From: an uncultured Pseudomonadales bacterium
GTDB lineage: Bacteria > Patescibacteriota > Microgenomatia > UBA1400 > PJMF01
Reading direction: 5' to 3'
Assembly: GCA_964404025.1 (NCBI GenBank)
Contig: CAYOIJ010000001.1
Location: 22,685-86,684 of the forward strand
Length of the DNA: 64,000 nucleotides
Both the position numbers and the translations under genes were made by a program. A model generated the notes under the pieces. That model did no database searches. It was not told the origin of the DNA and was given only the letters and a program-made list of their open reading frames with translations. This document shows positions 20,256 through 46,051 of this stretch, one piece after another; position 1 is the first letter of the stretch, and the number at the start of each line of letters is the position of its first letter.

Positions 20256-20263
20256 AATTTTAT

Positions 20264-20704
20264 TTATATTATTGGACTTGGTATTTTGGGGTTAATTATA
20301 AAGCTAGCATCACCAAATAGAATTAAACCGATAACAGCGGCGATGGTGTAAGAGGCAACAATGATAGCGAGCCCAACAACGCTTAGAGTAAGTTTGGAGC
20401 CAATTTTTTCTATAGCTCCTGAGTTGTCGGCACTAGTGATATAGGTAAAACCAGCTAAGATAAAATTAAGCATGGTCCACAATCCAGCCACAATTGAGAT
20501 CAGTTTAATCAAGTTAGAAAAGAAAAGAATAAGGCCAATACCACTATCTGATTGTTGATTTAACTCAGCCACGCCAGGAGGAGCATCAATATTACCAAAA
20601 ACAGAAGCGGGTTTAGCGCTTGGGGTTTGGGCAAAGGTTTGATTATTTAAAAAGATGCTTGATGCAATAAGTAGAAAAAGTAGTCCTAAAATTATTTTTT
20701 TCAT
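20264..20704 (-). CDS. VirB2/TrbC-like pilin paralog 6 of 7
   Basis: Signal peptide ending FAQT. Loop YITSADNSGAIEKIGSKLTLSVVGLAIIVASYTI. Confidence 0.6.
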   Translation of the reverse strand: MKKIILGLLFLLIASSIFLNNQTFAQTPSAKPASVFGNIDAPPGVAELNQQSDSGIGLILFFSNLIKLISIVAGLWTMLNFILAGFTYITSADNSGAIEKIGSKLTLSVVGLAIIVASYTIAAVIGLILFGDASFIINPKIPSPII

Positions 20705-20733
20705 TTCAAATTTCCATTATACCTGGCTCTTTT

Positions 20734-21150
20734 TCAAAAGCCAATATCTGCTCCAGTAAATGTTTTGATTATTTGCATAATCCAATAAGCAGCGAAAATA
20801 ACTAAGAATCCGATGAGAGCCGAAGTCATGGTAGTTTTAGCTTTTTCTTTACTTTCTGACTCACTTCCGGCAATCATAGCTAAACCTGAAATAACGATCA
20901 TGGCAAAAAGAATTAAGCCAACTAAGACAAAGACAACTCTTACCAAAAGATTAACCATGTCTGCTGGCGTGCTAAAAACATCACTAACTTTTTGGCCGTC
21001 ACTAAGAACCAAGTATTCTGCAAGATCTATCTCAACAGCGTTAGTATCAGCTTGAGCTGTAAATTGAATGGATGAAAAATTAAAAATTAAAAAATTTGAA
21101 GCTAGAACTGACATTATTAATATAATTGTCATCAAGATTTTTTTCATCAA
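20734..21150 (-). CDS. VirB2/TrbC-like pilin paralog 7 of 7
   Basis: Signal peptide ending TAQA. Loop MIAGSESESKEKAKTTMTSALIGFLVIFAAYWI. Confidence 0.6.
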   Translation of the reverse strand: MMKKILMTIILIMSVLASNFLIFNFSSIQFTAQADTNAVEIDLAEYLVLSDGQKVSDVFSTPADMVNLLVRVVFVLVGLILFAMIVISGLAMIAGSESESKEKAKTTMTSALIGFLVIFAAYWIMQIIKTFTGADIGF

Positions 21151-30953: not shown

Positions 30954-32054
30954 TCAGTGTTGACGAGAACGAGCAAAATCTAAAATTTCCAGAAGCAGTT
31001 CTTGTAAATTTTTATTTTTCAACTGATTAATTAGGGTCTGCGCTTCCAGATTTAATTGATCCAAGAGTTGATTGACTTGTTTTAAGCTGTGGTTTTCAAA
31101 TAATTTTTGAATGGCTGAATATTGATTTTCTTTAATATTTTGTTTGGCAAAACAGTTGTTTAGTAATTCTCTTTCTTGTTTTCTGAGAGTTTTGTCTTTA
31201 ACCAGATAATAGTAAAAAATAGTTTTTTTGCCTTCTTTTACATCAGATAGGATTGGTTTGCCAGTCTTTTGATTATTGCCAAAAATGCCTAGATAATCGT
31301 CTCTAATTTGAAAGATAAGACCGATTTTTTCTCCAATTTCACTAAGTTGATTGCTGTCCTTAAATTTATTGGCGAGTTTTGCGGCGAGTATTAGGGGTAG
31401 AGAAAAACTGTAGCGAGCAGTTTTGTACAGATTCATTTCTAAGATTTGTTCCAGCGAAGGTAATGTTTCTTGCATTGCTAACTGACTATCAAGCATTTCA
31501 GCCAAAATTACTTGGCTAATTTCTCGATTAATCAAATTCTGAATGCCTAAAAACTGCTCTCTATTTAGTTTAATTTGTGAGTCTGAATTATTAGTGCTTT
31601 CCAAGACTAATTGATTGGCTAGAAAAAAACATATATTGCCTAAGCAAATTGCTTGGCTTTTTCCATAGTGTTGGTTTGGAGTTTGGTTTTGTTTAGAGTA
31701 ATATTGCCAGATAGAATCTTGTCCTCTTCGCTGCTGATCTTGATCAATAATATCATCATGAATCAACAATCCAGCCTGAATTAATTCAAGGGCGCTAGCC
31801 AAGGGCAATAAAATCTCTTCAAAGATTTTTTCTCTTTTTTGTGGTTCAAATATTTCATAAGCGAGGATGAACAAATTAGCTCTTGTCATTTTACCCAGCA
31901 CTACAAAGTTTTTTAGAGTTTCGAAGACATCATCATCCAAGCTTATTTTTTTTAATGCCTGTTTTTCTTGATCTAAAGATTTTTGAAGATAGTTGCTAAT
32001 ACTCGTTCTATATTTACTTAAAATGGACATCGATTTAGTCATGTTAAGTATCAT
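30954..32054 (-). CDS. Polyprenyl diphosphate synthase (trans-isoprenyl diphosphate synthase, FPP/GGPP-synthase family)
   Basis: First DDxxD LLIHDDIIDQDQQRRG. Second DDxxD FQIRDDYLGIFG. 366 aa. Confidence 0.85.
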   Translation of the reverse strand: MILNMTKSMSILSKYRTSISNYLQKSLDQEKQALKKISLDDDVFETLKNFVVLGKMTRANLFILAYEIFEPQKREKIFEEILLPLASALELIQAGLLIHDDIIDQDQQRRGQDSIWQYYSKQNQTPNQHYGKSQAICLGNICFFLANQLVLESTNNSDSQIKLNREQFLGIQNLINREISQVILAEMLDSQLAMQETLPSLEQILEMNLYKTARYSFSLPLILAAKLANKFKDSNQLSEIGEKIGLIFQIRDDYLGIFGNNQKTGKPILSDVKEGKKTIFYYYLVKDKTLRKQERELLNNCFAKQNIKENQYSAIQKLFENHSLKQVNQLLDQLNLEAQTLINQLKNKNLQELLLEILDFARSRQH

Positions 32055-32119: not shown

Positions 32120-33016
32120 ATGGAGGTTCCAAGACATTGGCGTTTACAAAAAACTCGTTATGGCAATGGGGAGGGAGAGCTAAAATTTGCTGTCTGTCCA
32201 GTTTGTGGTGAAAAAATATTTCCACCAAACCGACCAATTTGCACTCGTTGCAGTTCTTCAATGACGGAGAACATTGTTTTTCAATCAGATGCTGTAGGAG
32301 TGGGCGCTTTAACCTTTGTAGCTACAGAAAAAGGGTTAAAGCTTCTATTTTTTGACGATGTTGATAGTAACCATTCAGATGATGAAAGTAGAAAAAAAGA
32401 AAGAATTATTTATCCTGAAAATCAAAATAAACTTGGCCAGAACCTAGCAGTTCAACGTCGGCTTAATAAGCAAGAAGATGTTTTTACTAGGCCAACTGGT
32501 ATCAACACGGTCACTGGTAGGGTAGAAAATGAGTCAGAACTCTTATTAGATTTTCTAGACGATAATGAAGACCTTGAGTCTTTAAGTTTTAAACAATTGC
32601 CACCAGCTTTTGTTAATGCTTTGTTTTTCAGCATGTTGCGAGAAATTGAAGAAGAAGTGCCGGGTCTATCATCGGCTGATTTAAGAGATAAGGTGCATTT
32701 TTTCTCTAAGTCTTCTTTTAGAATTGAACAAATTAGACCACTTGAAGGTTCTAATCAAGAGTTAGCACTTTATAATTTTGTAGTTTTTGTTTTAGCAATT
32801 TTAATTAATGAAGAAGAGTTAGCAAAAATTAAAAGGGAGGGCTGGCGACTTTATTCTCCAAAGGAATTATCAAGCATGGATAAAAAAGAATTTCGAAAAG
32901 CGACTTTGGCGGTTTTAGACTTTTTACCAGCAGCTTTATTATTTTTGGCAGAAGAAGGTAAAATTCCTCAAGAAGAGTTGGCAAGATTATTACCCCAACA
33001 AGTAGAAATTAATTAG
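32120..33016 (+). CDS. Zinc-ribbon protein (CPVC...CTRC), possibly with a DUF35-like N-terminus, and an acidic C-terminal region. Function unknown
   Basis: N-terminal ELKFAVCPVCGEKIFPPNRPICTRCSS, then SDAVGVGALTFVATE, resembling the Zn-ribbon plus OB start of DUF35 proteins. The remaining 200 aa are unassigned. Confidence 0.45.
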   Translation: MEVPRHWRLQKTRYGNGEGELKFAVCPVCGEKIFPPNRPICTRCSSSMTENIVFQSDAVGVGALTFVATEKGLKLLFFDDVDSNHSDDESRKKERIIYPENQNKLGQNLAVQRRLNKQEDVFTRPTGINTVTGRVENESELLLDFLDDNEDLESLSFKQLPPAFVNALFFSMLREIEEEVPGLSSADLRDKVHFFSKSSFRIEQIRPLEGSNQELALYNFVVFVLAILINEEELAKIKREGWRLYSPKELSSMDKKEFRKATLAVLDFLPAALLFLAEEGKIPQEELARLLPQQVEIN

Positions 33017-33025
33017 AAAATATAA

Positions 33026-33826
33026 ATGAAAAAAAATCTTACTTTAATTAAGCTCGGTGGTTCAATTATTACTGATAAAGAAATTCCTATGTCTTTGAGA
33101 GGATCAATTCTTAAGCGCTTGGTCGGTGAAATTGCTAGCGCTAGACAAGAAAAACCTGATCAATTACTAATAATTGGTCATGGTCAGGGTAGTTTTGCCC
33201 ATGTTCCAGCTAGTCAATATAAAACAATGGCTGGATTTATCAATGATGAAAGTGTTTTGGGGATGGCTATTGTTCAAGATAGTGCTGCTTCACTCAATCG
33301 TTTAGTTGTTCATGAGTTTTTAAAACACGAGTTAGCAGCGGTTTCTTTTTATGCTAGCAATACAATTGTTACGAAAAAAAGAAAATTATTGAATTTTTGT
33401 GCTGATGCTATCGATCAATATTTACAAAAAGGCTTATTGCCAATTACTTGTGGAGACGTCTTAGTTGACAGTGACCAGGGTTGCACGATCTGGTCAACAG
33501 AAAAAATCTTAGCTTTTTTAGCTGATTATTTTTTAGAAAAAGGAATGCAAGTGAACAAGATTATCCATGTAACAGAAGTAGCTGGTTTTTTAGATAAACA
33601 AGGCCAGCTTGTACCAGAAATTACAGCCAGTACTTGGCCTCAAATCAGTAAAGATTTACGCCATACTAGAGGTTTTGATGTGACTGGGGGCATGGGTTTA
33701 AAAATTGAGAAGTCGCTGGATTTAGCAAAAAAAGGGATTGAGTCAGTAATAATTTCTGGAATGATGAAAGACAATTTATTTTGGGCACTCAGTGGTCAAG
33801 ACTGTGTTGGTACTACTATTCATTAA
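33026..33826 (+). CDS. ipk: Isopentenyl phosphate kinase (amino-acid-kinase fold), archaeal-type
   Basis: LTLIKLGGSIITDK, IIGHGQGSFAH and GFDVTGGMGLKI align with the archaeal IPK motifs ILKLGGS / HGGGAFGH / DVTGGM. Confidence 0.75.
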   Translation: MKKNLTLIKLGGSIITDKEIPMSLRGSILKRLVGEIASARQEKPDQLLIIGHGQGSFAHVPASQYKTMAGFINDESVLGMAIVQDSAASLNRLVVHEFLKHELAAVSFYASNTIVTKKRKLLNFCADAIDQYLQKGLLPITCGDVLVDSDQGCTIWSTEKILAFLADYFLEKGMQVNKIIHVTEVAGFLDKQGQLVPEITASTWPQISKDLRHTRGFDVTGGMGLKIEKSLDLAKKGIESVIISGMMKDNLFWALSGQDCVGTTIH

Positions 33827-34286
33827 TTGTTGTTTTATCTTCATCTAAACTAGATTTTTCTTTTTCTAAATTTTTTTCAACAGATTTCTGTTGCCAATCA
33901 TCTACCACTGCTTTGCAGTAAATATATTGACCATATTCAAAAGCTTTTTCACCAAGTTTCTTTTCTTCTAATTCGTTTGTTTGGATGGATTCTGAAACAA
34001 ATTCTTGAGCGACTTTTCCAGCTTCTAGAGCTTTTTGTGCACTTATTTTAATTTGTTCTCCTGCGTCACCACTTAATTTATTTAATTGTAAATTTAATTC
34101 TTCTTGATTTTGAAAAGAATTTATAAAATCTTGCCAATTCTGGATTTTGCCTGATTGAAACTTTTCAATTTGAGCTTGAAGTGGATGGTTTTTGAGCAAG
34201 CCTTTTTGGTAAGCAAATGCGCTTAAGGCCAATAAGATTAAAATAATAATCAATAATTTTATTAGTTTAATAATTAGTTTGATCAT
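33816..34286 (-). CDS. Hypothetical N-terminally membrane-anchored coiled-coil protein
   Basis: Hydrophobic N-terminus (IIKLIKLLIIILILLALSAFAY), then a polar, helix-prone region. 156 aa. Confidence 0.4.
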   Translation of the reverse strand: MIKLIIKLIKLLIIILILLALSAFAYQKGLLKNHPLQAQIEKFQSGKIQNWQDFINSFQNQEELNLQLNKLSGDAGEQIKISAQKALEAGKVAQEFVSESIQTNELEEKKLGEKAFEYGQYIYCKAVVDDWQQKSVEKNLEKEKSSLDEDKTTINE

Positions 34287-34290
34287 AGGG

Positions 34291-34364
34291 TGCGTGTGCT
34301 AGGACTTGAACCTAGAACCGCCAAGGTATAAGCTTGGTGCTCTAACCAATTGAGCTACACACGC
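34291..34364 (-). tRNA. tRNA with anticodon UAU. Ile-type, reading AUA, is inferred from the anticodon and D-arm only. 74 nt, with CC encoded after the discriminator A
   Basis: Hand-folded cloverleaf. Acceptor GCGTGTG/CACACGC is a perfect 7 bp. U8 A9. D-stem GCTC/GAGC with loop AATTGGTTA. Anticodon stem CCAAG/CTTGG with loop C-U-UAU-A-C. Variable loop CGGTT. T-arm CTAGG-TTCAAGT-CCTAG. Discriminator A. Confidence 0.8.
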
Positions 34365-34405: not shown

Positions 34406-35323
34406 TTACAAAAGTAGTAGTAGCAGTGCGCCAAAGCCAAGAACACCGAGTCCAGCTTTTAGGTAATTAAACCAATCGGCAAATCCTGATTCGGTTGGCA
34501 CAAGGGCTGGTCTCTCAATAACATTATTACCATCTGGCAAGCGACAGTTAACATCAGTTGGATTAACATCAAGACGACATAGTCCCTCATAACAAATGTG
34601 ACTGACATTGTCGCAGTCAGTATTTTCACTACAACTTTCATTACAACCAACAGTGGTAATTACTTGAGTTAAAACAGGAGTTGGCTCTTCTTTGGGAGGA
34701 GTAGTTACCGTAGTAGGTGTTGGAGTGGCAACTGGCTTATCGGTGGGAGTAGGTTCTGGAGTTTGAGTTGGGCTGGGAGTTCCTGTTGGTTCTGGAGTTG
34801 GAGTGAGTGTTAAAGATGGGGTTGGCGTGGTAGTTGGCTCAACACTAGGAGTGGGAGAGGGAGTAATGCTAATTGTTGGCTCCACACAGCAAGAGTCATA
34901 ATCACGCTGATTACGGCACTCATCAGTTTGTGAAGCTAAGCCACAAATACCAACTGCAATGGCCACTCCTTCATTTGGAGCGCCTTGTATACAAACATAA
35001 TCTTCTTGACAATCATTATCATCAGCGCAGCCACTTTCGGCACAGCTTAAGTTTAAAGGAACACTAAAGGTAGTGACACAAGATTCTTCTACAGGAATAT
35101 ATGCTTCTGGTTGAGATTGTGGGACGTTGGGAGCTACTGGTCCTGGTTCTAACTCTTGTTTGCGACTAATCAAAATAACACTAGCTGATCCCACGATAAA
35201 AAGTAGCAGAGTAAAAAACAATAGTACAGTTTTAAGTGGGTTTTTGCTCTTTTTTGTTTTAGAATCACCAGCACTCGGTGCTTTTGCATATTTGACTGGT
35301 TGGTAATTATTGTTTTTGTCCAT
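34406..35323 (-). CDS. Cys-rich, Thr/Pro-linker surface protein, paralog A. N-terminal signal-anchor and a shared C-terminal domain ending in a hydrophobic tail
   Basis: N-terminal basic region plus TM. Many Cys. PT-rich linker (TPSPTPSVEPTTTPTPS...). The roughly 95-aa C-terminal domain VITTVGCNESCSENTDCDNVSHICYEGLCRLDVNPTDVNCRLPDG...VPTESGFADWFNYLKAGLGVLGFGALLLLLL is near-identical to paralog C. Confidence 0.6.
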   Translation of the reverse strand: MDKNNNYQPVKYAKAPSAGDSKTKKSKNPLKTVLLFFTLLLFIVGSASVILISRKQELEPGPVAPNVPQSQPEAYIPVEESCVTTFSVPLNLSCAESGCADDNDCQEDYVCIQGAPNEGVAIAVGICGLASQTDECRNQRDYDSCCVEPTISITPSPTPSVEPTTTPTPSLTLTPTPEPTGTPSPTQTPEPTPTDKPVATPTPTTVTTPPKEEPTPVLTQVITTVGCNESCSENTDCDNVSHICYEGLCRLDVNPTDVNCRLPDGNNVIERPALVPTESGFADWFNYLKAGLGVLGFGALLLLLL

Positions 35324-35334
35324 TTTCTTATTTT

Positions 35335-36417
35335 TTATTCCAAGCTTGCCTCTTTAATTTCTGGGTTGGTCCATTCTTGGCAAGAATCTAAGCCTGTACA
35401 TAAGCGACATTCAGCAATAAAATCCCCACCTTCTTTAATTAAATAATCCGCAGAAGTATTGGCAATACTAAGTCTTTCTTCAAGAAAGACTACTTCTCCG
35501 TTTGGTTCTAAGACAGCAAAATCAAAGCGCTCAATTAAGTCATCAGGATTTCCGCTAGATGCTAGTTTACCAGAACATCTAAACCTAATAATGCTAACTC
35601 CAGGTATAAATTCTTGATCTGCATCTCCGGTTAAAACTTGATTATTTTGATCTAGAATTTCAACTTTGCGACACATTGGAACAGGAGTGGGTGTTGGTCC
35701 AGTAGTGGGTGTTGGTCCAGTGGTTGGAGTGGGACCGGTAGTTGGAGTGGGTCCAGTGGTGGGTGTTGGTGTTGGAGGACGTGGAGTGTTAGTTGGTTGA
35801 GGCGTATTGCCACACTCTCTTAGCGAAGTTTCATAATGCTGACAGCTCGAGTTAACATTGCAGTAGGTGTTTGAGTTGTTAACAGCATCAATTTGCCAGC
35901 ATTGAGGGTAGTTTGAGCTTCTGGCTTTATTCAGTAGGGTACTACAGTTTCCAAACTCCCAATAAGAACTAGGGTCAGACTCAGAGCATTTTCCAGGAAC
36001 TAGAATACCTTTTGGACAGTTGATGAGCACACATTTACCCTCCCAAGTACCTGAAGTATTTCGACAAGAACTTCCATAATGATAGGAATTACAGCTAAAA
36101 CCAGAACTATAAGCTTGTTGTCTGGTGTCTTGACGCTGTTTCATTAAAATTAAACCCGCAGCACTACTAGCCAGTAGGAAGAAAAGCAAGACAATTGCTA
36201 GTATATTGGTTTTATTTTTAGTCAAGTTGTCTTGTGGATTTTTAGAGCCAGAATCTTTACTAATCAGATTAGGTGGGGTTTTTTCTGTTTTAACTTCATT
36301 TTTCTTATCAAAATTATTACGTCTATTCAGGAAAAAAGTATTAGATTCTAGCTTATCAGGCTGACTCGGTATTGTTTCATTGTGAACTGGTGAAAAACGA
36401 TTGCTAGTGTCAGTCAT
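35335..36417 (-). CDS. Cys-rich, Thr/Pro-repeat surface protein, paralog B. It has a different C-terminal domain and no C-terminal hydrophobic tail
   Basis: N-terminal cytoplasmic stretch plus TM (ILAIVLLFFLLASSAAGLIL). Post-TM motif MKQRQDTRQQAYSS shared with paralog C (KRAQDLRQQAAYQ). (TGPTP)n repeats. Confidence 0.6.
   Translation of the reverse strand: MTDTSNRFSPVHNETIPSQPDKLESNTFFLNRRNNFDKKNEVKTEKTPPNLISKDSGSKNPQDNLTKNKTNILAIVLLFFLLASSAAGLILMKQRQDTRQQAYSSGFSCNSYHYGSSCRNTSGTWEGKCVLINCPKGILVPGKCSESDPSSYWEFGNCSTLLNKARSSNYPQCWQIDAVNNSNTYCNVNSSCQHYETSLRECGNTPQPTNTPRPPTPTPTTGPTPTTGPTPTTGPTPTTGPTPTPVPMCRKVEILDQNNQVLTGDADQEFIPGVSIIRFRCSGKLASSGNPDDLIERFDFAVLEPNGEVVFLEERLSIANTSADYLIKEGGDFIAECRLCTGLDSCQEWTNPEIKEASLE
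35690..35800. repeat. Tandem 15-nt coding repeat encoding (PTTGPT)n within surface protein paralog B
   Basis: GTGGGTGTTGGTCCAGTAGTGGGTGTTGGTCCAGTGGTTGGAGTGGGACCGGTAGTTGGAGTGGGTCCAGTGGTGGGTGTTGG read directly. Confidence 0.7.
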
Positions 36418-36522
36418 AAAAAGACTATGAATAAGGCATTACAAGTATTATCTTTAGATAAGCATACTCTATTTTTTGAGGCTTTAGCAAGAGTAATTTT
36501 TTATATTCCATTCTAGAATTAA

Positions 36523-37626
36523 CTAAAATAGAAGTAACAATAAGGTTCCAAGTCCTAGCGCACCCAAACCAATTTTAATGAAATTAAACCAATCAGCAAA
36601 ACCTGTTTCAGTTGGAATTTCTACTGCTCGCTCAATGATAGTACCACCATCTGGCAAGCGACAGTTAACATCAGTTGGGTAGACATCTAGACGACAAAAG
36701 CCTTCATAGCAAATATGGCTAATATTGGCACAATCAGCGTTTTCATTGCAACTTTCATTACAGCCAACAGTGGTAATTACTCTAGTTACGACTGGAGTTG
36801 GTTCTTCTGGTTTGTTAGTTGGCTGGATACTTGACGTGGGACTAGTAGTGGCTGTGGGTTCAGTGGTTGGGCCGGTGGTTGGCTCGGATGTTGGCCCAGT
36901 GGTTGGTCCGGTGGTAGGCTTAGTAGTTGGTTCGATTGTAGGTTCAGTGGTAGGTTCAGTGGTAGGTTCAGTGGTAGGTTCAGTAGTTGGTTCGATGGTG
37001 GGTTCAGTGGTTGGCTCGGATGTTGGCCCAGTGGTGGGTCCAGTGGTGGGTTTGGTGGTAGGCTCAGTGCTGGGTTTGGCTGTGGGTTGAGGAGAACTTT
37101 GACAATAATCTCCACCTCCTCCAGTACTAATACAAGTTCTTGGGCCACCATTTCCACCACAATTAGTAGTAATCCAACAATCGTGAGTATAGCACTTGGT
37201 ATACAAAAGATACCAATCCTTACAATAAGAACCTCCTTTGTTAGAACAACTACTAATCTGACTAGAGGTACAGATGATGTCCTGATAGGCAGCTTGTTGT
37301 CTCAGGTCTTGAGCTCTTTTAATTAAAAATAAAGAAGTTAAGGTGCCAATTACCAGTAATAAAAGTAAAATACCTAGCAAGATTGTTTTCTTTTGTTTAG
37401 GTGTTTTTTTTTGCTTGTTTTTTGTAGGTGCTTTACTTTTACCACTGTTGTTACCTGATTGAGATGTATTTACTGGATTTGTTTGAAGAATTGGGTTATT
37501 AGTAGAGGCATTTGTTGTTGAAGGCCCGTTAGGTCTAACCATCGGAGGCTCGCTAGGCTTGCTAGCTTGATTCTCATGAGGTTTTTGTTGGTATTTATTT
37601 GGTAAATATTTACTTAAGTCAGACAT
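36523..37626 (-). CDS. Cys-rich, Thr/Pro-repeat surface protein, paralog C, with the shared C-terminal domain and hydrophobic tail
   Basis: N-terminal Lys-rich region plus TM. Cys/Gly-rich segment. Roughly 80-aa (PTTE/PTTG/PTTK) repeat. C-terminus VITTVGCNESCNENADCANISHICYEGFCRLDVYPTDVNCRLPDGGTIIERAVEIPTETGFADWFNFIKIGLGALGLGTLLLLLF. Confidence 0.6.
   Translation of the reverse strand: MSDLSKYLPNKYQQKPHENQASKPSEPPMVRPNGPSTTNASTNNPILQTNPVNTSQSGNNSGKSKAPTKNKQKKTPKQKKTILLGILLLLLVIGTLTSLFLIKRAQDLRQQAAYQDIICTSSQISSCSNKGGSYCKDWYLLYTKCYTHDCWITTNCGGNGGPRTCISTGGGGDYCQSSPQPTAKPSTEPTTKPTTGPTTGPTSEPTTEPTIEPTTEPTTEPTTEPTTEPTIEPTTKPTTGPTTGPTSEPTTGPTTEPTATTSPTSSIQPTNKPEEPTPVVTRVITTVGCNESCNENADCANISHICYEGFCRLDVYPTDVNCRLPDGGTIIERAVEIPTETGFADWFNFIKIGLGALGLGTLLLLLF
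36845..37085. repeat. Tandem 12-nt coding repeat, about 20 units (GGTTCAGTGGTA-like), encoding (PTTE/PTTG/PTIE)n in paralog C
   Basis: Near-perfect 12-nt periodicity read directly. The antisense ORF-track entries here are frame artefacts of the repeat. Confidence 0.8.
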
Positions 37627-38485: not shown

Positions 38486-39331
38486 TTGAATGTTTTAAAA
38501 GGAAATGATTTTTTAGAAAATAGAATGAAATTTAGTAAAAAACAGTGTTATTGGTTAGATTTTTTATCGGCAATGACACAAAAAGAAATTAAAGCACGTT
38601 ATAAACGAGCTACTTTCGGTTTTCTATGGATAATATTAAATCCTCTTTTACAGATGTTGGTCTTGGGTTTTGTTTTTCAGTTTTTTGTTCCAATCCGAGT
38701 TGACAATTATTTTCTATTTTTATTTGCAGGATTGTTGCCTTGGAATTTTTTGTCTCAGAGTTTAACTAAAACAACACCAGCTTTTTTTTATGAAAGAAAT
38801 TTAATTAAAAAAGCTAAATTTCCTAGAGAAGGAATTGTTTTATCAATTATTTTTTCCAACTTTTTTCATTTTTTGGTAGCTTTATCTCTGCTTTTGGTAG
38901 CTTTAATTGGTGATAAATTATTGATTGAAAGTTACGGTTTTGTACAAATAATTTTTTACATGTTAAGAATGTTATGGCTTTTACCGGCGATGTTACTATT
39001 AATAGTTTTTACCACTGGTTTATCCTTAATTACCTCATCTCTTAATGTCAGATTTCGTGACATAAATTTTATTGTTCAATTAACAGTAATGCTGTGGTTT
39101 TATGCCACACCAGTGATTTACACATTAAATTTATTGCCAGAATTTTTGTGGCCGATTTTTTATTTAAATCCGATGACTGCTATAATTGAATTGTTTCATC
39201 ACGCATTGATGGGTCTACCGATTACAATAACCAGCTTTATTTGGATGACGGTTGGAGTAATTTTCTGTTTTTTTTATTTTGGTTTACGAATTTTTAGCAG
39301 AGAAAGTAAAAATTTTGATGATTGGTTGTAA
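38486..39331 (+). CDS. wzm: ABC-2 family polysaccharide export permease (Wzm/TagG-like)
   Basis: Six TM segments. KEIKARYKRATFGFLWIILNPLLQMLVLGFVF signature of ABC-2 permeases. Paired with the following ATPase. Confidence 0.7.
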   Translation: MNVLKGNDFLENRMKFSKKQCYWLDFLSAMTQKEIKARYKRATFGFLWIILNPLLQMLVLGFVFQFFVPIRVDNYFLFLFAGLLPWNFLSQSLTKTTPAFFYERNLIKKAKFPREGIVLSIIFSNFFHFLVALSLLLVALIGDKLLIESYGFVQIIFYMLRMLWLLPAMLLLIVFTTGLSLITSSLNVRFRDINFIVQLTVMLWFYATPVIYTLNLLPEFLWPIFYLNPMTAIIELFHHALMGLPITITSFIWMTVGVIFCFFYFGLRIFSRESKNFDDWL

Positions 39332-39343
39332 TTTTGGAAAAAT

Positions 39344-40054
39344 ATGACTGTTTTACAAGAAAAGACAATAAAAAAACGCAAAGTAAGCAATGAGGTTGCT
39401 ATTTCTTTATCTAATATTGGAAAGAAATATACCATTACTCACGAAAAACCAACTCTTGTAGAGGATGTTAGTAGAATATTACATTTTCAAAAAAAACAAG
39501 AATATTGGGCATTAAAGAACGTTGACTTAAAAATTTATAAAGGGGAAAAAGTTGGCCTTTATGGACCTAATGGAATTGGGAAGACTACGATATTGAAGAT
39601 TATTGCTGGTATTAGTGCTCCTACTGAGGGCAAAATAAAAACTAAAGGACGAACTGTTTCTTTAATAGACTTGGAAGCTGGTTTTCATCCTGATCTAACT
39701 GGACAGGAAAACATCTTTTTAAACGGCTTAATTATTGGTATGGAAAAAAATGAAATAAAAGAAAAATTTAATAAGATTGTTGATTTTGCTGGTATTGGTG
39801 ATTTTATTACCGCACCTTTGTACACCTACTCTAGTGGCATGAAGTTGAGATTGGGTTTTAGTGTGGCAATTCATTCTAATCCGGAAATATTACTTCTTGA
39901 TGAGGTAATCAATGCAGGAGATGAAAAATTTCGAGAAAAAGTTTGGAACGTTTTATTAAAAATGTTTGATGAAGAAATTACAGTGTTGATGGCCAGTCAG
40001 TGGTTGGAGATACTAAACAAACACATGTCGAAGATTATAAGTTTGTCTAAATAA
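39344..40054 (+). CDS. wzt: ABC transporter ATP-binding protein (Wzt/TagH-like, short form without a C-terminal glycan-binding domain)
   Basis: Walker A GLYGPNGIGKTT. Signature YSSGMKLRLGFSVA. Walker B ILLLDE. 236 aa. Confidence 0.85.
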   Translation: MTVLQEKTIKKRKVSNEVAISLSNIGKKYTITHEKPTLVEDVSRILHFQKKQEYWALKNVDLKIYKGEKVGLYGPNGIGKTTILKIIAGISAPTEGKIKTKGRTVSLIDLEAGFHPDLTGQENIFLNGLIIGMEKNEIKEKFNKIVDFAGIGDFITAPLYTYSSGMKLRLGFSVAIHSNPEILLLDEVINAGDEKFREKVWNVLLKMFDEEITVLMASQWLEILNKHMSKIISLSK

Positions 40055-40066
40055 TTGTTTTATTTT

Positions 40067-41113
40067 TTAATCGTTTATTAAAACCTTATAAGCTGATAAA
40101 AAGAAAACCTCCTTTTTTCTAAATCCACTTTTTTTTAAAACACTAATAAAATCTGTAATTTTATAAAATTTATACCAGTTCTGGTTAAAATTTAACTTTA
40201 ATATTGATTTTTTCAGCGAAAGAAACAAGTAGCCATATTCAATATCCTTGGTTGAGGAATCGGGAGTAAAGTGAATAAAAGTAATTTTTTCATTCTTAGT
40301 TTTCAATAAGGAGTAACTTTTATCCAATGCTTTTGGTTTTTTTTGACTCAAATACAGGCAATACACTGTTTGTTCTACTAAGTGAATCTGATATAAAAAT
40401 TCTACGCCTCTGTAGTAGTCTCTAATTATTCTTTCATACAAGGCATTACCAATGTTTTCTAACCAGTGATTTAAGTTTTTAAGGGTTCGCTGAGGATTTA
40501 CTGATTCTCTATTTATGCATAGCAAGCCACTATTTAATTGCTGAGGTAGGTTTTTCATTTTTAAATACTTTTGTGCCTCAATCGGTGAAATTACTTTAAA
40601 GTTCAAGTAATCCTGCAAGTACAATGAAAATAAATTTTTTGCATCTTTATCATTTACCCAGTCGATAATTTTTTTAGGAGAAGAAAAAAATAAACAGTCG
40701 GCATCTATAACAATGATTTTCTTGTATTGAGATAAAATTGGAGTGAATAATTTTTTTCCTGCCCAGGTTTTTTGATACATCTCCTCTGCAATTGAATGTT
40801 TTTTAAGCAGCGTTAGTGTTTGGGAATTAAGTTTTTCTAATAATTCAAATTCAGAACCCATTAATTTTATAAGCTTTTTGTGAAACTTTGTAAGTGATCC
40901 GTCATTGACGAAAATGATTTTGACATTTTTCACGAATTTTTTAAAACTAATTGCACTCAAAATTCCTAAATATATGTATTGATTGCCAACAGTAATAAAA
41001 GCAGCGGTGTTTTTTATTAATTTATTTTTAGAATTTTTCTTAAAAGAAATAATTAATACATTGACAAATATGGCAGTATTGACAATGTATCTTTTTAAAC
41101 GATGTTTGATCAT
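40067..41113 (-). CDS. Hypothetical protein, possible nucleotide-sugar-dependent glycosyltransferase (DxD-like KIIVIDADCLFF)
   Basis: 348 aa. N-terminal hydrophobic segment. Only weak motif evidence. Confidence 0.35.
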   Translation of the reverse strand: MIKHRLKRYIVNTAIFVNVLIISFKKNSKNKLIKNTAAFITVGNQYIYLGILSAISFKKFVKNVKIIFVNDGSLTKFHKKLIKLMGSEFELLEKLNSQTLTLLKKHSIAEEMYQKTWAGKKLFTPILSQYKKIIVIDADCLFFSSPKKIIDWVNDKDAKNLFSLYLQDYLNFKVISPIEAQKYLKMKNLPQQLNSGLLCINRESVNPQRTLKNLNHWLENIGNALYERIIRDYYRGVEFLYQIHLVEQTVYCLYLSQKKPKALDKSYSLLKTKNEKITFIHFTPDSSTKDIEYGYLFLSLKKSILKLNFNQNWYKFYKITDFISVLKKSGFRKKEVFFLSAYKVLIND

Positions 41114-41248
41114 AAGTTGTTGTGTTTTAAGTTTTAGTTTTTATAAGTAAATAATAGACTAATCTTTTACCAGCAGGGTTCAGGTAATGATATACTATGT
41201 GCAATTATTCTACAATAAAGGCATGGGAATTATTTTTCGATATAAATT

Positions 41249-42625
41249 ATGAAAACAAAGGTTATTTTTGTTAATCCACCATTTTATAGGTCAGAAAATT
41301 CAAACGCATCCAATAACTTCAAGGTGGATGGACCGAGATTTCACAAGATATATAGGAACATCCCTCAATTATTAAAAATTTGGAATAAATTTAGAGATCC
41401 TACGGTTAGATTTGGTGTAAGAGCTGGGTCTAGATGGCCGTGGACTTGGGATCAGCCCCTAGAACCAATTCACTATCCATTTATGATGGCTTATGCAACT
41501 TCATATTTGATTTCAAAAGGAATAGAATCAAAATTAATTGATTCTATCGCTGAAGAAGACTACTCTTATTCTAACTTTCTCAAAAAAATAAAAAAGGAAA
41601 AAGCAGATATTGTTGTCATGGAAACCTCTATGATTTCTTTGGACATTGATATGTGGTTGGCTAAAAAAATTAGTAGCTTTAGCGAGGTAGGAATAGCTGG
41701 CTCTTATGTAACTTATTATGCTCAAAGTATGCAAAATAAATATCCTTTTATCAGCTATTTGTTGCCAGGAGAATATATAAAATCATCTTTTAAAATGGCA
41801 GTCAAGAAACAAAAGGGTGTTTATAAATCAGAAATTATAAGTGACTTGGATGCATTGCCTTTTCCATACAGAGACTATCCAGAGTCAATAAAGTATTACG
41901 ATCCTACGATGCCAACCCCCAAGCCTCAACTGCAAATTTATGGGAGCAAGGGTTGTCCCTTCAAATGTTCGTTTTGTCTTTGGACTCAAACCATGTATTT
42001 TCATAAGTTCACACTGAGAGACCCTAAGAGAATTGCCGAAGAAATTAAGCATTGTGTAAAAAAATATAAATTTAAAAGTATTTTTTTTGATGATGACACT
42101 TTTAATATTGGCAATGAACGCATAAGTGAATTATGCGACCTATTAAAAGAAATTAATTTACCATGGACGATGATGGGGAGACTAGATTGTTCTCCTGATT
42201 GGTTGATTGACAAAATGGTTGCTTGTGGCTGTGTTGGCATGAGGTTTGGTTTGGAGACTTTTAATAAAAAAGTTAGTAAAAGAGTAGATAAGGGATTGGT
42301 CGATCAGAATCTTTACAAGAAAATAAAAAGATTGAGTGATAAGTATCCTAAATTAATGTTGAGAATATTCATGATGAAAGATTTACCAGGTCAGACAAAT
42401 CAAATGCATCAATCTGATATGAAAAAATTACAAGGTCTAGGATTTAAAGAATTTGGTGATAAATATAGACAAATTCAAGTATCTGTTTGTGCGCCTTTTC
42501 CCGGAACTAAACTGTTTGAAGAAATTAAGGACAAAGTTGATTCTGATAAATTAGACGATTATCGTTTATATGATGGGCACTTAAATACAATAATGAAATA
42601 TTTTAATAAAAATAATTCAAACTAG
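41249..42625 (+). CDS. B12-binding-domain radical SAM enzyme
   Basis: CxxxCxxC cluster YGSKGCPFKCSFCLW. N-terminal roughly 180 aa consistent with a cobalamin-binding Rossmann-like domain (ADIVVMETSM...). 458 aa. Confidence 0.7.
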   Translation: MKTKVIFVNPPFYRSENSNASNNFKVDGPRFHKIYRNIPQLLKIWNKFRDPTVRFGVRAGSRWPWTWDQPLEPIHYPFMMAYATSYLISKGIESKLIDSIAEEDYSYSNFLKKIKKEKADIVVMETSMISLDIDMWLAKKISSFSEVGIAGSYVTYYAQSMQNKYPFISYLLPGEYIKSSFKMAVKKQKGVYKSEIISDLDALPFPYRDYPESIKYYDPTMPTPKPQLQIYGSKGCPFKCSFCLWTQTMYFHKFTLRDPKRIAEEIKHCVKKYKFKSIFFDDDTFNIGNERISELCDLLKEINLPWTMMGRLDCSPDWLIDKMVACGCVGMRFGLETFNKKVSKRVDKGLVDQNLYKKIKRLSDKYPKLMLRIFMMKDLPGQTNQMHQSDMKKLQGLGFKEFGDKYRQIQVSVCAPFPGTKLFEEIKDKVDSDKLDDYRLYDGHLNTIMKYFNKNNSN

Positions 42626-42636
42626 TATTTTCAGTT

Positions 42637-43494
42637 ATGAAAATTTTAATTGTTGGGGCTTCAGGATTTATCGGTTCAGCACTACATTTTTCTTTGGCAA
42701 AAAAAACAAAGGTGATAGGTACTTATTACAAAAACTACGTTCCTGGCACTTATTATTTAGATGCCAATAGTCCTGATAATATAAAAAACTTTTTAAAAAA
42801 ACATACAGATATTGATTTTATTATTTTGAGTCATGGTGTTAAAGATTTAGTAAAGTGTGAAAATGATTATTCGTTGGCTTATCAAAACAACGTTCAACAA
42901 ACAATTAACATTGTTGAATCATTAAAATGCTTTAATAATAAAGCTAGGGTTATATATATATCATCTAATTATGTTTTTGATGGAAAAAAAGGTTTATATA
43001 AAGAGTATGATAAAAAAAATCCAAGAACTATTTACGGCAAGACTAAGTCTTTGGCAGAAGACTATTTAATTAGCCAGGATGTTCCTTGGACAATTATTAG
43101 AACGTCTTCTGTCATAGGTTTAAAAAGTAGTTTTATTAGCTATGTTAAACGGGAGTCTTTGAAAAAGAATAAAATATTTCTCTATAAAAATGTAAACATT
43201 AACCCGACTCCAGCAACAATGTTGATGGATTTTTTTGATTTACTAGTCTTTGATAGTGATTTAAACAGTACTAAAAATCAAATCCTTCATTTTGTAGATA
43301 AAAAAATTGAAAGCAAATATAGCTTTGTTATAAATAACTACAAAGTATTGAGTTTAGAAGTTGAGATAGAGCCAATAATAAGTGAGAGTCCACTTTATTT
43401 TGAGAATTTAACAATGAAGGTTACTGATAAATTTTACTCTCAACTAAGCTCATCTTATGACAAATATTTAAGAGAATCACTAACTGAAAACTAA
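42637..43494 (+). CDS. NAD(P)-dependent sugar-nucleotide reductase, RmlD-like (dTDP-4-dehydrorhamnose reductase family)
   Basis: MKILIVGASGFIGSAL Rossmann motif. YISSNYVFDGKKGLYKEYDKKNPRTIYGKTKSLAE matches the RmlD S.DYVFDG...Y.E.D...P...YG.SK pattern. 285 aa. Confidence 0.6.
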   Translation: MKILIVGASGFIGSALHFSLAKKTKVIGTYYKNYVPGTYYLDANSPDNIKNFLKKHTDIDFIILSHGVKDLVKCENDYSLAYQNNVQQTINIVESLKCFNNKARVIYISSNYVFDGKKGLYKEYDKKNPRTIYGKTKSLAEDYLISQDVPWTIIRTSSVIGLKSSFISYVKRESLKKNKIFLYKNVNINPTPATMLMDFFDLLVFDSDLNSTKNQILHFVDKKIESKYSFVINNYKVLSLEVEIEPIISESPLYFENLTMKVTDKFYSQLSSSYDKYLRESLTEN

Positions 43495-43496
43495 TT

Positions 43497-44690
43497 TTAT
43501 TTCAATAATGAATTGACTATATTAACTAGTTTTTTGATTTCGATGTCCATATTAGCTTGTTCAGTCACATACTTGTAACCTTTTTCTATTATTTTTTCTT
43601 TTAAATCTGGATTCTTTAAATAAAAAGATATTTTTTTTTCTAGATCTCTGTTGCCACTACTGACTATTAGTTTGTTGTGCAGAGAGTGTTTTTTATTAAT
43701 AAATCTTGCATCGGTAATCACAAATCCCTTGCAAGCTAACGCTTCCAATGTTCTAAGAGTAACAACATTCAATCTTAAATGATCTAGGGCTGTAAAATTC
43801 AAACAAATTTTACTTGAATTATATAGACTTCTTACATGAGCTTGTGATATTTTTCCTCTGGATATTTGAGAAAAAATTGAACTGTCATAGTAGGTATAAC
43901 TATAAATGTTTGCAATTATTCTGACTTTTAAATTATTTATTTCAATTTCTAATTTTTGTTTTTTGTCTTCTATTTTTAAAATGAAATTATTGGCTATCTT
44001 TTTTAGATGTCTGAATTTATTTTTTAAATATATCAGCACAGCTTTAAAATTACGTTTATCTGAAGCAAAATTTTTAATACTTATTTTAATTTTTTTATAT
44101 ACTTTTAACTGTTTTGATTCTTCTTTTTTTATAATTTCTTTAGAGTTGGCTTGATTCCAGCCTCCAAATAATCCAAACTTGAATTTTAATGGTGGAAGCA
44201 GATATTTTTCTGTATGTTCTTTATTTTTAATATTATTCCCAACATAAACGACATCATAAGAATTCTTTTTTACTTTTTTCTCAGGGAAAAATATTTCTGT
44301 ATCTACACAAAAAGGGAAATAAAATACTTTTTTATTTTTTAATTTAGTTTTGTATGATTCATACAATTTTTTTGAAACAAATATATAGGCATCGTATTTA
44401 TATTTGCTAATTTTAAACAAAATCTTTTCAGATTTTTCTTGATAAGGATCTTGCAAATAGAGAACGTGTTTTTTTGCCCAATTTTTGTTTAAAGGCGTTT
44501 CGTCCAGATAGATCATCAAATCAATCTTTTTTAAGGGTAGATTGATGGCAGAATATAATCTTGCACGAATCTTATTAGGTTTATTAATTCTTTTACATAG
44601 TGATTCTGCATACAACTCATCTCCAACAACATAGTTATTGTTTTTTAGAGATCCTGTATGGTATTTTGTATAGAAACCAATATTAATCAT
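43497..44690 (-). CDS. CgeB-like glycosyltransferase (Glyco_trans_1_2 C-terminal domain)
   Basis: C-terminal LRLNVVTLRTLEALACKGFVITDA...KKISFYLKNPDLKEKIIEKGYKYV fits the R.FEa.acG...kl.yyl.np..r motif of CgeB-type GT-B enzymes. Confidence 0.5.
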   Translation of the reverse strand: MINIGFYTKYHTGSLKNNNYVVGDELYAESLCKRINKPNKIRARLYSAINLPLKKIDLMIYLDETPLNKNWAKKHVLYLQDPYQEKSEKILFKISKYKYDAYIFVSKKLYESYKTKLKNKKVFYFPFCVDTEIFFPEKKVKKNSYDVVYVGNNIKNKEHTEKYLLPPLKFKFGLFGGWNQANSKEIIKKEESKQLKVYKKIKISIKNFASDKRNFKAVLIYLKNKFRHLKKIANNFILKIEDKKQKLEIEINNLKVRIIANIYSYTYYDSSIFSQISRGKISQAHVRSLYNSSKICLNFTALDHLRLNVVTLRTLEALACKGFVITDARFINKKHSLHNKLIVSSGNRDLEKKISFYLKNPDLKEKIIEKGYKYVTEQANMDIEIKKLVNIVNSLLK

Positions 44691-45616
44691 TATTGAAATT
44701 GTTCTTTTGTTGAATGATAGTTTGCTATAGTTAAACCTTTAACAATTTCATAAGTTTTTTTACTGAATTTTAAAAAGTTTTCCTTTACAGTTTTATAATG
44801 ACAAAAATTAAAAATATTTTTAAAATCTGAATAAACATATTTAAGATTTTCATTCAATACTTGCTTGCTTAATTGATGGTCAAATTTACCAATATAACTA
44901 TAACAAGCAATTTCTCCGCCAAGATAAGATAACTTTAATTTTTGATGCTCCTTTTTTGTTAGCCACCTATTGTGGTGCAAAATTATCTTGGGTTCATAAA
45001 GTATAGTTTTTTTGTTTATCAGAGCTCTCAGTGCTATTTCTGCATCTTCAGCACTTTTGGTTCTTGTTCCAGGTCCCAGCCATTCTTTAAAACCTCCATG
45101 TTTTTTAAAAAAACTGCTTTTCCAAGCCATGTTGTTGCCAAAACCTATGTTTTCCCAATGTTTACATGGTTTACTAATATATCTTTTTTGATTTTTTAAA
45201 AAAACTGCTGGGCAAACCAAACCGTTATTAATATTTTTTTTGTAAGGCAATGTTTTACCAAAGACAGCGACTATTTTTTTGTCATTTTGCAGGGTTGATT
45301 TAATATTTTTTAGCCAATTGAAGCTTGGTAAACAGTCATCATCAGTAAAAGCAATTATTGGAGTGGTGCTTAGTTTAATTGCGAGATTTAAGGCTTTAGA
45401 TTTACCTTCATTACTTGTATAAATATAGCGACAATTTTTTATTTTTTTAATTTCTTTTTTTAAGGCATGGCTCATCTTTTTTGAGCAACTTTGATCTACA
45501 ATAATTAATTCAAAATTATTAAAATTGCCATTATTTAAAGCCTGTAGACAATTAGTTAATTGTTTTTGACGATTTTTTGTTGCGATAATGAGAGATAATT
45601 CTGTTGACGTTGACAT
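44690..45616 (-). CDS. Glycosyltransferase family 2
   Basis: SLIIATKNRQKQLTNCLQAL...ELIIVDQSC...GKSKALNLAI...IIAFTDDDCLP (GT-A DxD). Confidence 0.8.
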   Translation of the reverse strand: MSTSTELSLIIATKNRQKQLTNCLQALNNGNFNNFELIIVDQSCSKKMSHALKKEIKKIKNCRYIYTSNEGKSKALNLAIKLSTTPIIAFTDDDCLPSFNWLKNIKSTLQNDKKIVAVFGKTLPYKKNINNGLVCPAVFLKNQKRYISKPCKHWENIGFGNNMAWKSSFFKKHGGFKEWLGPGTRTKSAEDAEIALRALINKKTILYEPKIILHHNRWLTKKEHQKLKLSYLGGEIACYSYIGKFDHQLSKQVLNENLKYVYSDFKNIFNFCHYKTVKENFLKFSKKTYEIVKGLTIANYHSTKEQFQ

Positions 45617-45634
45617 TGATATAATATTTTTGTA

Positions 45635-46051
45635 TTAGAGGCTATAATATTTTTTTTGCACTGAACCGAGAAAAGGTCCTTGTTTGACTTCAAATATTTC
45701 AGCTTGTGTTAACAGTTCGAAGCTATGACCCAAAGATCTTTGAAATAAAATATCCCCCTTTTTTAAAATTTCAGTTTGAAATAATTTCCCTTGCTTGTTG
45801 TAGAAATTTACTTTAACTTTTCCCTTAACAATGTAAAAAACCTCCTGCAAGCTATCCACAGAACATTTTTGAAAGCAATGGTAATGAGCTTTTAATTTAG
45901 CACCTTTGGGCTTTTTATGATAACCAACTTGCAAATAATCTTCCTTTTTTGAAAAAAAATCCAAATTATCAATTGGAAACTGTGCCCTCACAATATAAGC
46001 AATTTCTTTGTTGTTGTAGAGGATTTTTTTGATGTTTTCTGTTTTTGACAT
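45635..46051 (-). CDS. Cupin-fold WxcM/FdtA-like protein (possible sugar-nucleotide ketoisomerase)
   Basis: 138 aa. GYHKKPKGAKLKAHYHCF... resembles the WxcM-like C-terminal cupin domain. Lies in a glycan locus. Confidence 0.5.
   Translation of the reverse strand: MSKTENIKKILYNNKEIAYIVRAQFPIDNLDFFSKKEDYLQVGYHKKPKGAKLKAHYHCFQKCSVDSLQEVFYIVKGKVKVNFYNKQGKLFQTEILKKGDILFQRSLGHSFELLTQAEIFEVKQGPFLGSVQKKYYSL

Follow-up and report, generated by a model that had tools for sequence, protein, structure and literature searches.

A row of three minus-strand genes, C, B and A, lies between positions 34406 and 37626 of the 64,000-nucleotide stretch of contig CAYOIJ010000001.1 that was analyzed as a whole and is called the window in the following. 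Judged from the sequences of homologous proteins, the C-terminal tail shared by A and C is a degenerate, lineage-specific derivative of the LPx[ST]G sorting signal that is widespread in bacteria belonging to the Candidate Phyla Radiation (CPR), and not an unrelated novelty. In the reading we favor, to which we give about an even chance, the trio would be one copy of a conserved CPR surface-protein cassette, and the A/C tail an LPx[ST]G-derived signal cleaved by an unlinked sortase. The "novel sorting signal" proposed previously shrinks in this way to a degenerate known one, and what is gained is a widespread CPR surface-protein scaffold together with its cassette. All named family members are annotated as "hypothetical protein", and the searchable literature held no description of the family, of a CPR-specific sorting signal, or of a charge-less CPR variant of LPXTG. 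A large unannotated CPR surface-protein family and its conserved cassette of two to three genes are defined here, for which we found no prior description.

The first-pass annotation of this DNA, made from the sequence alone, had proposed three neighboring minus-strand genes for proteins with a basic N-terminal tail and a transmembrane (TM) anchor, and the corresponding open reading frames (ORFs) are present (Table 1). C, B and A encode proteins of 367, 360 and 305 amino acids (aa), respectively, with a spacing of 105 bp between C and B and of 11 bp between the stop codon of B and the start of A. The three proteins follow a common plan, in which a basic or polar N-terminal tail of 30–80 aa leads to a hydrophobic helix of 20–22 residues and then to Cys-rich modules and linkers rich in Pro and Thr (PT linkers). 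A post-TM motif RQQAAY/RQQAY, announced for two of the genes, was recovered in C (RQQAAY, 37285–37302, within the segment KRAQDLRQQAAY that follows the helix) and in B (RQQAY, 36109–36123, within KQRQDTRQQAY). In its place, A has PVAPNVPQSQPEAY (35102–35140), which belongs to the post-helix segment SRKQELEPGPVAPNVPQSQPEAY. Cys-rich modules and PT linkers were likewise found in all three proteins, and according to TRF the linkers are true tandem DNA repeats, with a 12-nucleotide (nt) period and 14 copies in C (36854–37076) and an 18-nt period and 4.9 copies in B. B ends with a 116-aa domain and has no hydrophobic tail. These features support the reading of the trio as exported, membrane-anchored, disulfide-rich surface proteins with PT linkers.

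Long ORFs also run across the PT repeats in other frames or on the other strand (36725–37090, plus strand; 36786–37160 and 34459–34650, minus strand). Their translations are Gly/Val- or Leu/Pro-rich, and they were rejected as genes and regarded as by-products of the repeats. A scan for promoters and terminators gave nothing better than shuffled sequences did.

A and C share a C-terminal module of 94 aa with six Cys residues. It consists of a GCNESC-x5-C-x6-C-x4-CRL...C domain, a short linker, the hexapeptide V/I-P-T-E-S/T-G, the segment FADWFN[YF][LI]K and a Gly/Leu-rich stretch. The motif and its flank read VPTESGFADWFN in A and IPTETGFADWFN in C, and the hydrophobic ends (LLLLLL in A, LLLLLF in C) run right up to the stop codon with no basic residues. 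In A, 25 residues follow G280 and form a hydrophobic extreme C-terminus directly behind the motif, as in a sorting signal. The common Cys module and the [VI]PTE[ST]GFADWFN motif with its hydrophobic helix and missing basic tail had been described correctly, whereas "near-identical" was too strong a term for endings that are 76% identical in the MAFFT alignment. BLASTP of A against C with composition adjustment left the C-terminal similarity unreported, although MAFFT shows it clearly.

An AlphaFold2 (AF2) model of A, based on a 30-sequence alignment, had a mean predicted local distance difference test score (pLDDT) of 72. It contains a TM helix (residues 29–58), the Cys domain (218–272) as a confident fold with pLDDT 93–98, a linker (273–280) holding VPTESG, and a single helix (281–304). 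The pLDDT of the hexapeptide is about 65. The Cys pattern C227/C231/C237/C244/C249/C260 is invariant across 30 relatives. VPTESG is thus predicted to reside in an exposed low-confidence linker just before the terminal helix, which is the expected place of a sorting or cleavage site. A Foldseek search of the A model against the PDB returned nothing at E ≤ 0.001, the top matches, small disulfide-rich domains, resembling it only weakly. The AF2 model of B, with a mean pLDDT of 40, was unusable.

A profile of the C-terminus had been proposed as a means to find further members of the family, and an exhaustive HMMER search revealed them in large number. A profile of the 94-aa module, built from A and C (alignment A2), was run against 1.84 billion cluster representatives and matched at least 240 of them at E ≤ 1e-3 and 137 at E ≤ 1e-10, all from uncultivated bacteria; the motif is present in the homologs. 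A word-indexed homolog search with the module had found one protein (P0001), and the family emerged only from the exhaustive profile search. The match almost always ends at the last residue of the host protein, and host proteins range from 170 to 1504 aa. Among the genomes of GTDB, 12 have the module with the motif, as do 36 contigs from metagenomes and 150 listed cluster representatives, a recurrence far beyond chance. A, C and all matches listed share CN-x2-C-x2-N-x-DC-x-N-x2-HIC-x4-CRL...C, x[STA]G, [PF]x[DE]WxNxLK and, last, a Gly-rich helix with terminal Leu residues, and we define the family by these features. The tail consensus among the representatives is ...QPxLPxELPx[TS]GPxDWxNWLKAGLxxLGxGAxLLLLL. 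Pfam and NCBIfam gave noise-level matches only with A, B and C, and no model covers the family.

Motifs were counted in 176 distinct modules from proteins, loci and the window at the position aligned with the window hexapeptide. The canonical form LPx[ST]G occurred in 113 modules (median module length 86 aa), LPxAG in 8 (median 89), and xPx[STA]G, e.g., QPVAG or APVSG, in 16 (median 78). The form [VI]PTx[ST]G, typical of the window clade, was present in 26 modules, all of exactly 79 aa; 11 modules (median 87) carried another motif and two were unassigned at this position. None of the 176 contained Lys, Arg or His within the last ten residues. The 6-Cys domain precedes the tail in every module collected, the collection having been made with the whole-module profile, and a search with a profile of the 44-aa tail yielded three fragments among 949 candidates. 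The tail always appears together with the 6-Cys domain, and free portability as a signal is not supported by these sequences.

The tail derives from a sortase-type signal, since 113 of the 176 modules are canonical, the TIGR01167 (LPXTG_anchor) scores come near the cutoff, and pilin-like isopeptide and DUF11 domains occur in the same proteins. Canonical members reach 13.8–15.5 bits on TIGR01167, i.e., 0.4–2 bits short of the cutoff of 15.9, and their match spans model positions 1–28 of 34, which is everything except the basic tail. PF00746 matched none of 87 family members. In the same 87 proteins, Pfam detected DUF11 in 19, bMG10 in 15 and DUF7927 in 8, and single matches included a GBS104-like tip-pilin Ig domain and Fibrinogen_C. 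Several canonical members have TIGR04226 domains, of the isopeptide-forming fimbrial kind, and DUF11 repeats as well. Isopeptide-forming fimbrial, DUF11, bMG10 and tip-pilin Ig domains are typical passengers of sortase substrates. We therefore regard the tail as an LPXTG-type sorting signal by descent, in a charge-less form and with unusually conserved residues after [ST]G. The earlier claim of a novel lineage-specific signal survives insofar as the C-terminal motif is conserved in homologs; as an unrelated novelty it is contradicted by the canonical LPx[ST]G of most aligned modules.

Functionally, the closest known system is that of LPXTG proteins and sortases (TIGR01167/PF00746). Common to both are the [ST]G motif just ahead of a terminal hydrophobic helix, the exact LPx[ST]G of most homologs, the adhesin- or pilin-like passengers of the relatives, and the sortase reported in the lineage. 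Unlike LPXTG proteins, those of the window have the hexapeptide [VI]PTx[ST]G, and the family has no positively charged tail, strongly conserves GPxDWxNWLKAGL after the Gly, and combines a fixed 6-Cys domain ahead of the signal with an uncleaved-looking signal anchor that carries a motif of its own. The signals of PEP-CTERM, PGF-CTERM and GlyGly-CTERM proteins are laid out similarly, in that secreted proteins finish with a short motif and, behind it, a terminal helix rich in Gly, Leu and Ala, whereas A and C contain neither a PEP, PGF or GG motif nor a basic cluster. No NCBIfam match of A or C to PEP-CTERM was obtained at E ≤ 10, and no EpsH-type protein was present among the window ORFs scanned. 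The same holds true for PGF-CTERM, for which A and C have neither the motif nor an NCBIfam match, and for archaeosortase- or rhomboid-type genes among the scanned ORFs; the genome is bacterial, as seen from its bacterial-type Pth, DnaA, DnaN and Bac_transf proteins. The tail had been said to resemble but not to match LPXTG, PEP-CTERM and PGF-CTERM signals, and indeed no TIGR01167, PF00746, PEP-CTERM or PGF-CTERM model matched A or C. As exported Cys-rich proteins of a monoderm that probably uses sortase, the trio may also be compared, by context only, with those surface proteins and pilins of Actinobacteria whose disulfide bonds depend on MdbA/VKOR. A disulfide-forming system of this kind, with VKOR and an oxidoreductase similar to MdbA, is reported to be enriched in CPR bacteria (PMC6744442).

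Two N-terminal frames recur among the 150 listed representatives, and neither matches a Pfam or NCBIfam model. In the type-2 frame, found in B and C, the TM helix is followed by x(3-5)-Q-x-Q-[DE]-[VIL]-R-Q-[QK]-A. In the type-1 frame, found in A, it is followed by RQ..., P-V-A-P-[NT]-A-P-x-S-x-P-x-A and then a strand of the form C-[ST]-L-x-F-x-V. The juxtamembrane motifs QDxRQQA and PVAPxAPxSxPxA (with CxLxFxV) resemble no signal-peptidase site; processing, docking or recognition of a partner are conceivable roles.

The genomic organization of the trio was analyzed in the window and 53 related loci, which are numbered with the prefix L and together comprise 624 kb. A tail-less type-2 gene is located immediately upstream of a tailed type-1 gene, as B is upstream of A here, in at least 12 loci (L002, L011, L013, L016, L018, L034, L035, L040, L042, L052, L053 and, by eye, L014). 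The full order of a tailed type-2, a tail-less type-2 and a tailed type-1 gene, corresponding to C-B-A, recurs in L002, L018 and L040, the last being a 55%-identity relative with the tails ...ETPQSGP and ...ELPVSGP; in L052 the three types are ordered differently. The C-terminal domain of B, for which a word-indexed search of 5.8 billion proteins gave only one match, is also weakly similar to that of the partner protein in L016. In L004–L007, L009 and L020–L029, single genes fuse the Cys module of B with the Cys module of A and the tail. These fusions suggest that B and A act together, and B, the conserved partner upstream of A, probably assembles with it into a cell-surface complex.

The closest relative, L002, has the same trio and flanking genes 94–96% identical to those of the window. 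The passenger Cys modules of gene C are wholly different from those in L002 (9218–10285) and L003 (698–1741), where flanking genes are >90% identical. Only the N-terminal frame and the C-terminal module of C are kept in comparison with L002 and L003, and the L002 ortholog of C carries an A-type module instead. These differences point to a rapid shuffling of modules at this site, which is to be expected of surface proteins under diversifying selection.

According to the favored reading, the proteins would be inserted N-in by their long basic cytoplasmic N-terminal tail and the signal-anchor helix. The ectodomain would form a string of small disulfide-bonded modules, oxidized outside the cell and spaced by extended, possibly glycosylated PT linkers; glycosylation is suggested by the sugar-transferase/ABC-2 locus that is invariably adjacent and by Wzy_C and PMT_2-like genes. 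The terminal helix would hold the C-terminus of A and C in the membrane, and an unlinked housekeeping sortase would cut between [ST] and G of [VI]PTx[ST]G and join both proteins to peptidoglycan. A and C would then bridge the membrane (N-terminus) and the wall (C-terminus), while B would stay N-anchored and pair with A. A role of the trio in envelope architecture or adhesion is likely. CPR bacteria (Patescibacteria) are thought to be attached to host cells, and the display of their envelope proteins is largely obscure. If the tail is processed, it would widen the substrate range of sortases and provide a handle for predicting the CPR surface proteome; if not, it would illustrate the conversion of a sorting signal into a plain anchor.

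A dedicated sortase- or exosortase-like enzyme had been envisaged for the signal, and this expectation failed: none is encoded in the window or within about 10 kb of the 53 related loci, so that there is no dedicated, linked processing enzyme. Pfam detected no sortase, exosortase, rhombosortase or archaeosortase domain in about 50 window ORFs, and the neighborhoods of the distant pilin-like members P0060, P0063 and P0086 contained no sortase. A regular expression for the sortase catalytic motif (TLxTC-type) found no sortase in the window and the 624 kb of related loci, nor did phmmer with Staphylococcus aureus SrtA among 923 ORFs from the window and these loci. Two weak phmmer matches to SrtA were inspected and are not sortases. 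The sortase family fam000526 was found in more than half of the CPR genomes and described as "near ubiquitous in Microgenomates" (Meheust et al., 2019; PMC6744442), and one complete Microgenomates genome was reported to encode a sortase (PMC7143001). Because of these reports, an unlinked housekeeping sortase is plausible in this genome.

The two failed sortase searches, by motif and with SrtA, weigh against the favored reading, and so do several properties of the proteins themselves. A and C gave no match to TIGR01167 or PF00746 at E ≤ 10. The pentapeptide LPXTG or LPx[TSA]G is replaced by VPTESG in A and IPTETG in C, and the basic tail, which is considered necessary for retaining classical sortase substrates, is missing from A, C and the whole family. 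Given the failure of pentapeptide, basic tail and model cutoff, A and C were not filed as LPXTG members; on these sequence features they are best classified as a derived variant. The N-terminus of A, B and C has a conserved polar motif after the helix and no AxA site; the helix thus lacks an obvious signal-peptidase site, which makes the mature topology uncertain. The alignments disagree on how the motif changed: in A7 (MAFFT), [VI]P-T-E[ST]G differs from LP-Q[ST]G by a one-residue insertion and an exchange of L for V/I, whereas A4 (MAFFT) implies the loss of about 10 residues including LP. In both, the L-P-x-T-G register is broken and the window motif is not LPXTG. Moreover, in the nearest clades the post-site segment G[PF]x[DE]WxN[YFW]LK is more conserved than LPxT, which is unusual for sortase signals.

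The loss of L-P in the window clade would be explained if the sortase site had decayed and the terminal helix now served as an uncleaved TM segment, so that the ectodomain is looped outside the cell between two permanent anchors and [ST]G[FP]A[DE]W acts as a helix cap or interfacial segment. We consider this the main alternative, though less likely than the favored reading. The nearest sister clades fit it, having degenerate pentapeptides (QPVAG, QPIAG, NYDSG, EYVTG, PPEPG) ahead of a constant downstream WxNYLK-G-G-G-LLLLL, as do the charge-less end, the lack of a sortase nearby and the single continuous helix that AF2 places right after G280. It is at odds with the constraint on the hexapeptide: among 21 distinct sequences of the window clade there is no length variation, T and G are invariant, P is present in 20 (D in one), the fourth position is E, Q or V and the fifth S or T, whereas the six residues of the linker upstream are free to vary, with 3–6 different residues per column. 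The hexapeptide is thus conserved beyond its surroundings and exposed, in the model, at the would-be processing site, which would agree with continued recognition; the conservation might also stem from helix capping or from a role at the membrane interface. Two further points speak against a plain second anchor, namely that the wider family mostly keeps the canonical LPx[ST]G over deep divergence, which a mere TM anchor would not need, and that a sortase is reported to be nearly ubiquitous in the lineage.

The strong conservation downstream of [ST]G might instead reflect a dedicated novel membrane enzyme, not a sortase, which recognizes the G[PF]x[DE]WxN[YFW]LK-Gly-rich helix and perhaps the N-terminal motifs and processes or attaches the proteins. 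This corresponds to the first-pass idea of a lineage-specific sorting signal, taken in its strong form. The permanent absence of a charged tail, the family-wide QDxRQQA and PVAPxAPxSxPxA frames outside all Pfam and NCBIfam models, and the purely hypothetical annotation and missing literature would agree with such an enzyme. We judge it distinctly improbable: no candidate exists among the constant neighbors (the 156-aa TM protein, tRNA-Ile, isopentenyl-phosphate kinase, sugar transferase and ABC-2 exporter), no exosortase-, rhombosortase- or archaeosortase-type domain was detected in the window proteins scanned, and the canonical motif of most members points to a sortase. More broadly, and in our view rather unlikely, the family could represent an undescribed CPR-wide system with two signals of its own, the N-terminal juxtamembrane motif and the charge-less C-terminal G[PF]x[DE]WxNxLK/Gly-rich helix, of which the window clade lost LP and kept the tail. 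If true, this would imply a sortase of novel specificity for the hexapeptide, or else an enzyme that recognizes the helix independently of sortase. Assembly of A, B and C as polymerized subunits of a sortase-dependent pilus or fiber, as in Gram-positive bacteria, is very improbable. Like pilus loci, the window has adjacent surface-protein genes, three in number, with related C-terminal signals. Their motif opens with V or I, like IPQTG and VPDTG among the pneumococcal pilins RrgA/B/C (YPRTG/IPQTG/VPDTG), and RrgB-like isopeptide domains and a tip-pilin Ig domain occur in distant members. In contrast to pilus loci, the trio has no adjacent class-C sortase, its middle gene B lacks a sorting signal, and its proteins are small disulfide knots on PT linkers. 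Pfam and NCBIfam found no pilin, DUF11 or isopeptide/CnaB-type Ig domain in A, B and C, TIGR04226 being confined to distant members; a conserved pilin-motif lysine is absent (the type-1 motif position varies between K, R and Q), and the uncleaved-looking N-terminal anchors are unfit for polymerization.

Table 1. Features of the genes C, B and A in the window (TM, transmembrane; res, residues)
Feature	Position	Strand	Basis or remark
Gene C	36523..37626	-	type-2 N-terminal frame, small Cys-rich module, long PT repeat, C-terminal Cys module and tail; orthologs in L002, L003, L018
C, TM helix, res 81-102	37321..37386	-	preceded by 80 aa of polar/basic cytoplasmic tail
C, juxtamembrane type-2 motif QDLRQQAAY	37285..37311	-	post-TM Q-D-[VIL]-R-Q-Q-A shared by dozens of proteins of the family
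C, N-proximal Cys-rich module, res 119-175, 8 Cys	37102..37272	-	sequence; other Cys modules in its place in L002, L003
C, PT-rich linker, tandem 12/24/36-nt repeats, TEPT/TGPT units	36854..37076	-	TRF; weak match to Pfam PT repeat
C, conserved 79-aa C-terminal module (6-Cys domain, linker, terminal helix)	36526..36762	-	alignment with relatives
C, hexapeptide IPTETG	36601..36618	-	aligned with LPx[ST]G of relatives
C, terminal amphipathic/hydrophobic helix FADWFNFIKIGLGALGLGTLLLLLF, no basic tail	36526..36600	-	sequence
Gene B	35335..36417	-	type-2 N-terminal frame, Cys-rich module, PT linker, C-terminal beta-rich domain; tail-less
B, TM helix, res 72-92	36142..36204	-	sequence
B, juxtamembrane type-2 motif QDTRQQAY	36109..36132	-	
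B, Cys-rich module, res 104-205	35803..36108	-	found again as N-terminal half of the fused single proteins of L004-L007 and L009
B, PT linker repeat	35682..35770		TRF
B, C-terminal 116-aa domain, res 245-360	35338..35685	-	homologous to C-termini of tail-less partners in L011, L013 (phmmer 1e-10)
Gene A	34406..35323	-	type-1 N-terminal frame, Cys module, PT linker, C-terminal Cys module and tail; orthologs in L001, L002, L008, L011-L013
A, TM helix, res 33-52 (AF2 helix 29-58)	35168..35227	-	sequence, AF2
A, juxtamembrane type-1 motif PVAPNVPQSQPEA, then C82-x-T-F-x-V	35102..35140	-	P65, P68, A74 and C82 invariant in 30 relatives
A, Cys-rich module 1, res 82-146	34886..35080	-	sequence; pLDDT of roughly 80-90 for res 90-150 in the AF2 model
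A, conserved 79-aa C-terminal module, 6-Cys domain C227-C260	34409..34645	-	AF2 pLDDT 93-98
A, hexapeptide VPTESG, res 275-280	34484..34501	-	low-confidence linker between Cys domain and terminal helix
A, terminal helix FADWFNYLKAGLGVLGFGALLLLLL, res 281-305 (AF2 helix 281-304)	34409..34483	-	sequence, AF2

The window further encodes DnaA, DnaN, RnpA, YidC, Jag, peptidyl-tRNA hydrolase, a polyprenyl synthase and an AA_kinase of the isopentenyl-phosphate-kinase type. In the 12 GTDB genomes, the module is located at the same chromosomal position, between sugar transferase/ABC-2 genes and the genes for a 156-aa TM protein and a kinase. Titles of syntenic relatives include Candidatus Woesebacteria, Pacebacteria and Paceibacterota; Woesebacteria, like Pacebacteria, belong to the Microgenomates group of Patescibacteria. 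The titles "candidate division TM6" (L011, CP011212.1) and "uncultured Pseudomonadales" (L002, L003, L005, L006, L008, L012, L013) conflict with the clear similarity of these loci, in gene order and sequence, to CPR genomes labeled Woesebacteria or Pacebacteria, and look like placeholder or outdated taxonomy.

A gene for tRNA-Ile(TAT) lies 41 bp downstream of A (34289–34364, minus strand), and a tRNA-Ile(TAT) gene directly follows the tailed gene in all seven syntenic loci tested (L002, L004, L005, L011, L013, L020, L034). A genomic UAU tRNA-Ile is uncommon in bacteria, which usually employ a lysidine-modified CAU tRNA. Immediately beyond the tRNA gene, in every syntenic locus (L001–L013, 38–76% identity), is the gene for the 156-aa protein (33816–34286, minus strand), which has an N-terminal TM helix and no Pfam match; this is the only constant companion of the family at this locus that is uncharacterized.

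On its right side the trio is followed by a 21-kb locus for glycan biosynthesis and export (37757–58891) with a G+C content of 24–30%, compared to 33–40% elsewhere. It contains genes for Bac_transf, an ABC-2 permease and ATPase, a radical SAM enzyme, an RmlD-like enzyme, several GT2/GT4 glycosyltransferases, two Wzy_C proteins and two PMT_2-like GT-C proteins. The segment matching 38486–46051 is absent or replaced in L002, with flanks that are 91–96% identical, which indicates a strain-variable glycan cassette beside the surface-protein genes. This cassette may glycosylate the PT linkers.

Elsewhere in the window, seven tandem small paralogs of 113–146 aa (18122–21150, minus strand) have W-[IT]-[TS]-[SA]-G-G-D-x-x-K-x-E-x-A-[RK]-N...AIIGL in common and look like a VirB2-like pilin cluster as described for type IV secretion systems of Patescibacteria; a TraG/VirB4-type P-loop ATPase is encoded at 1844–4039 (plus strand). 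Genes for the isopentenyl-phosphate-kinase-type AA_kinase, a ChsH2-type zinc-ribbon protein and the polyprenyl synthase are located at 32120–33826 and 30954–32054, and in L001 (1102–5223) these isoprenoid genes are joined by MVD-like and GHMP kinase genes. Together, they suggest a mevalonate-type isoprenoid pathway in this CPR lineage.

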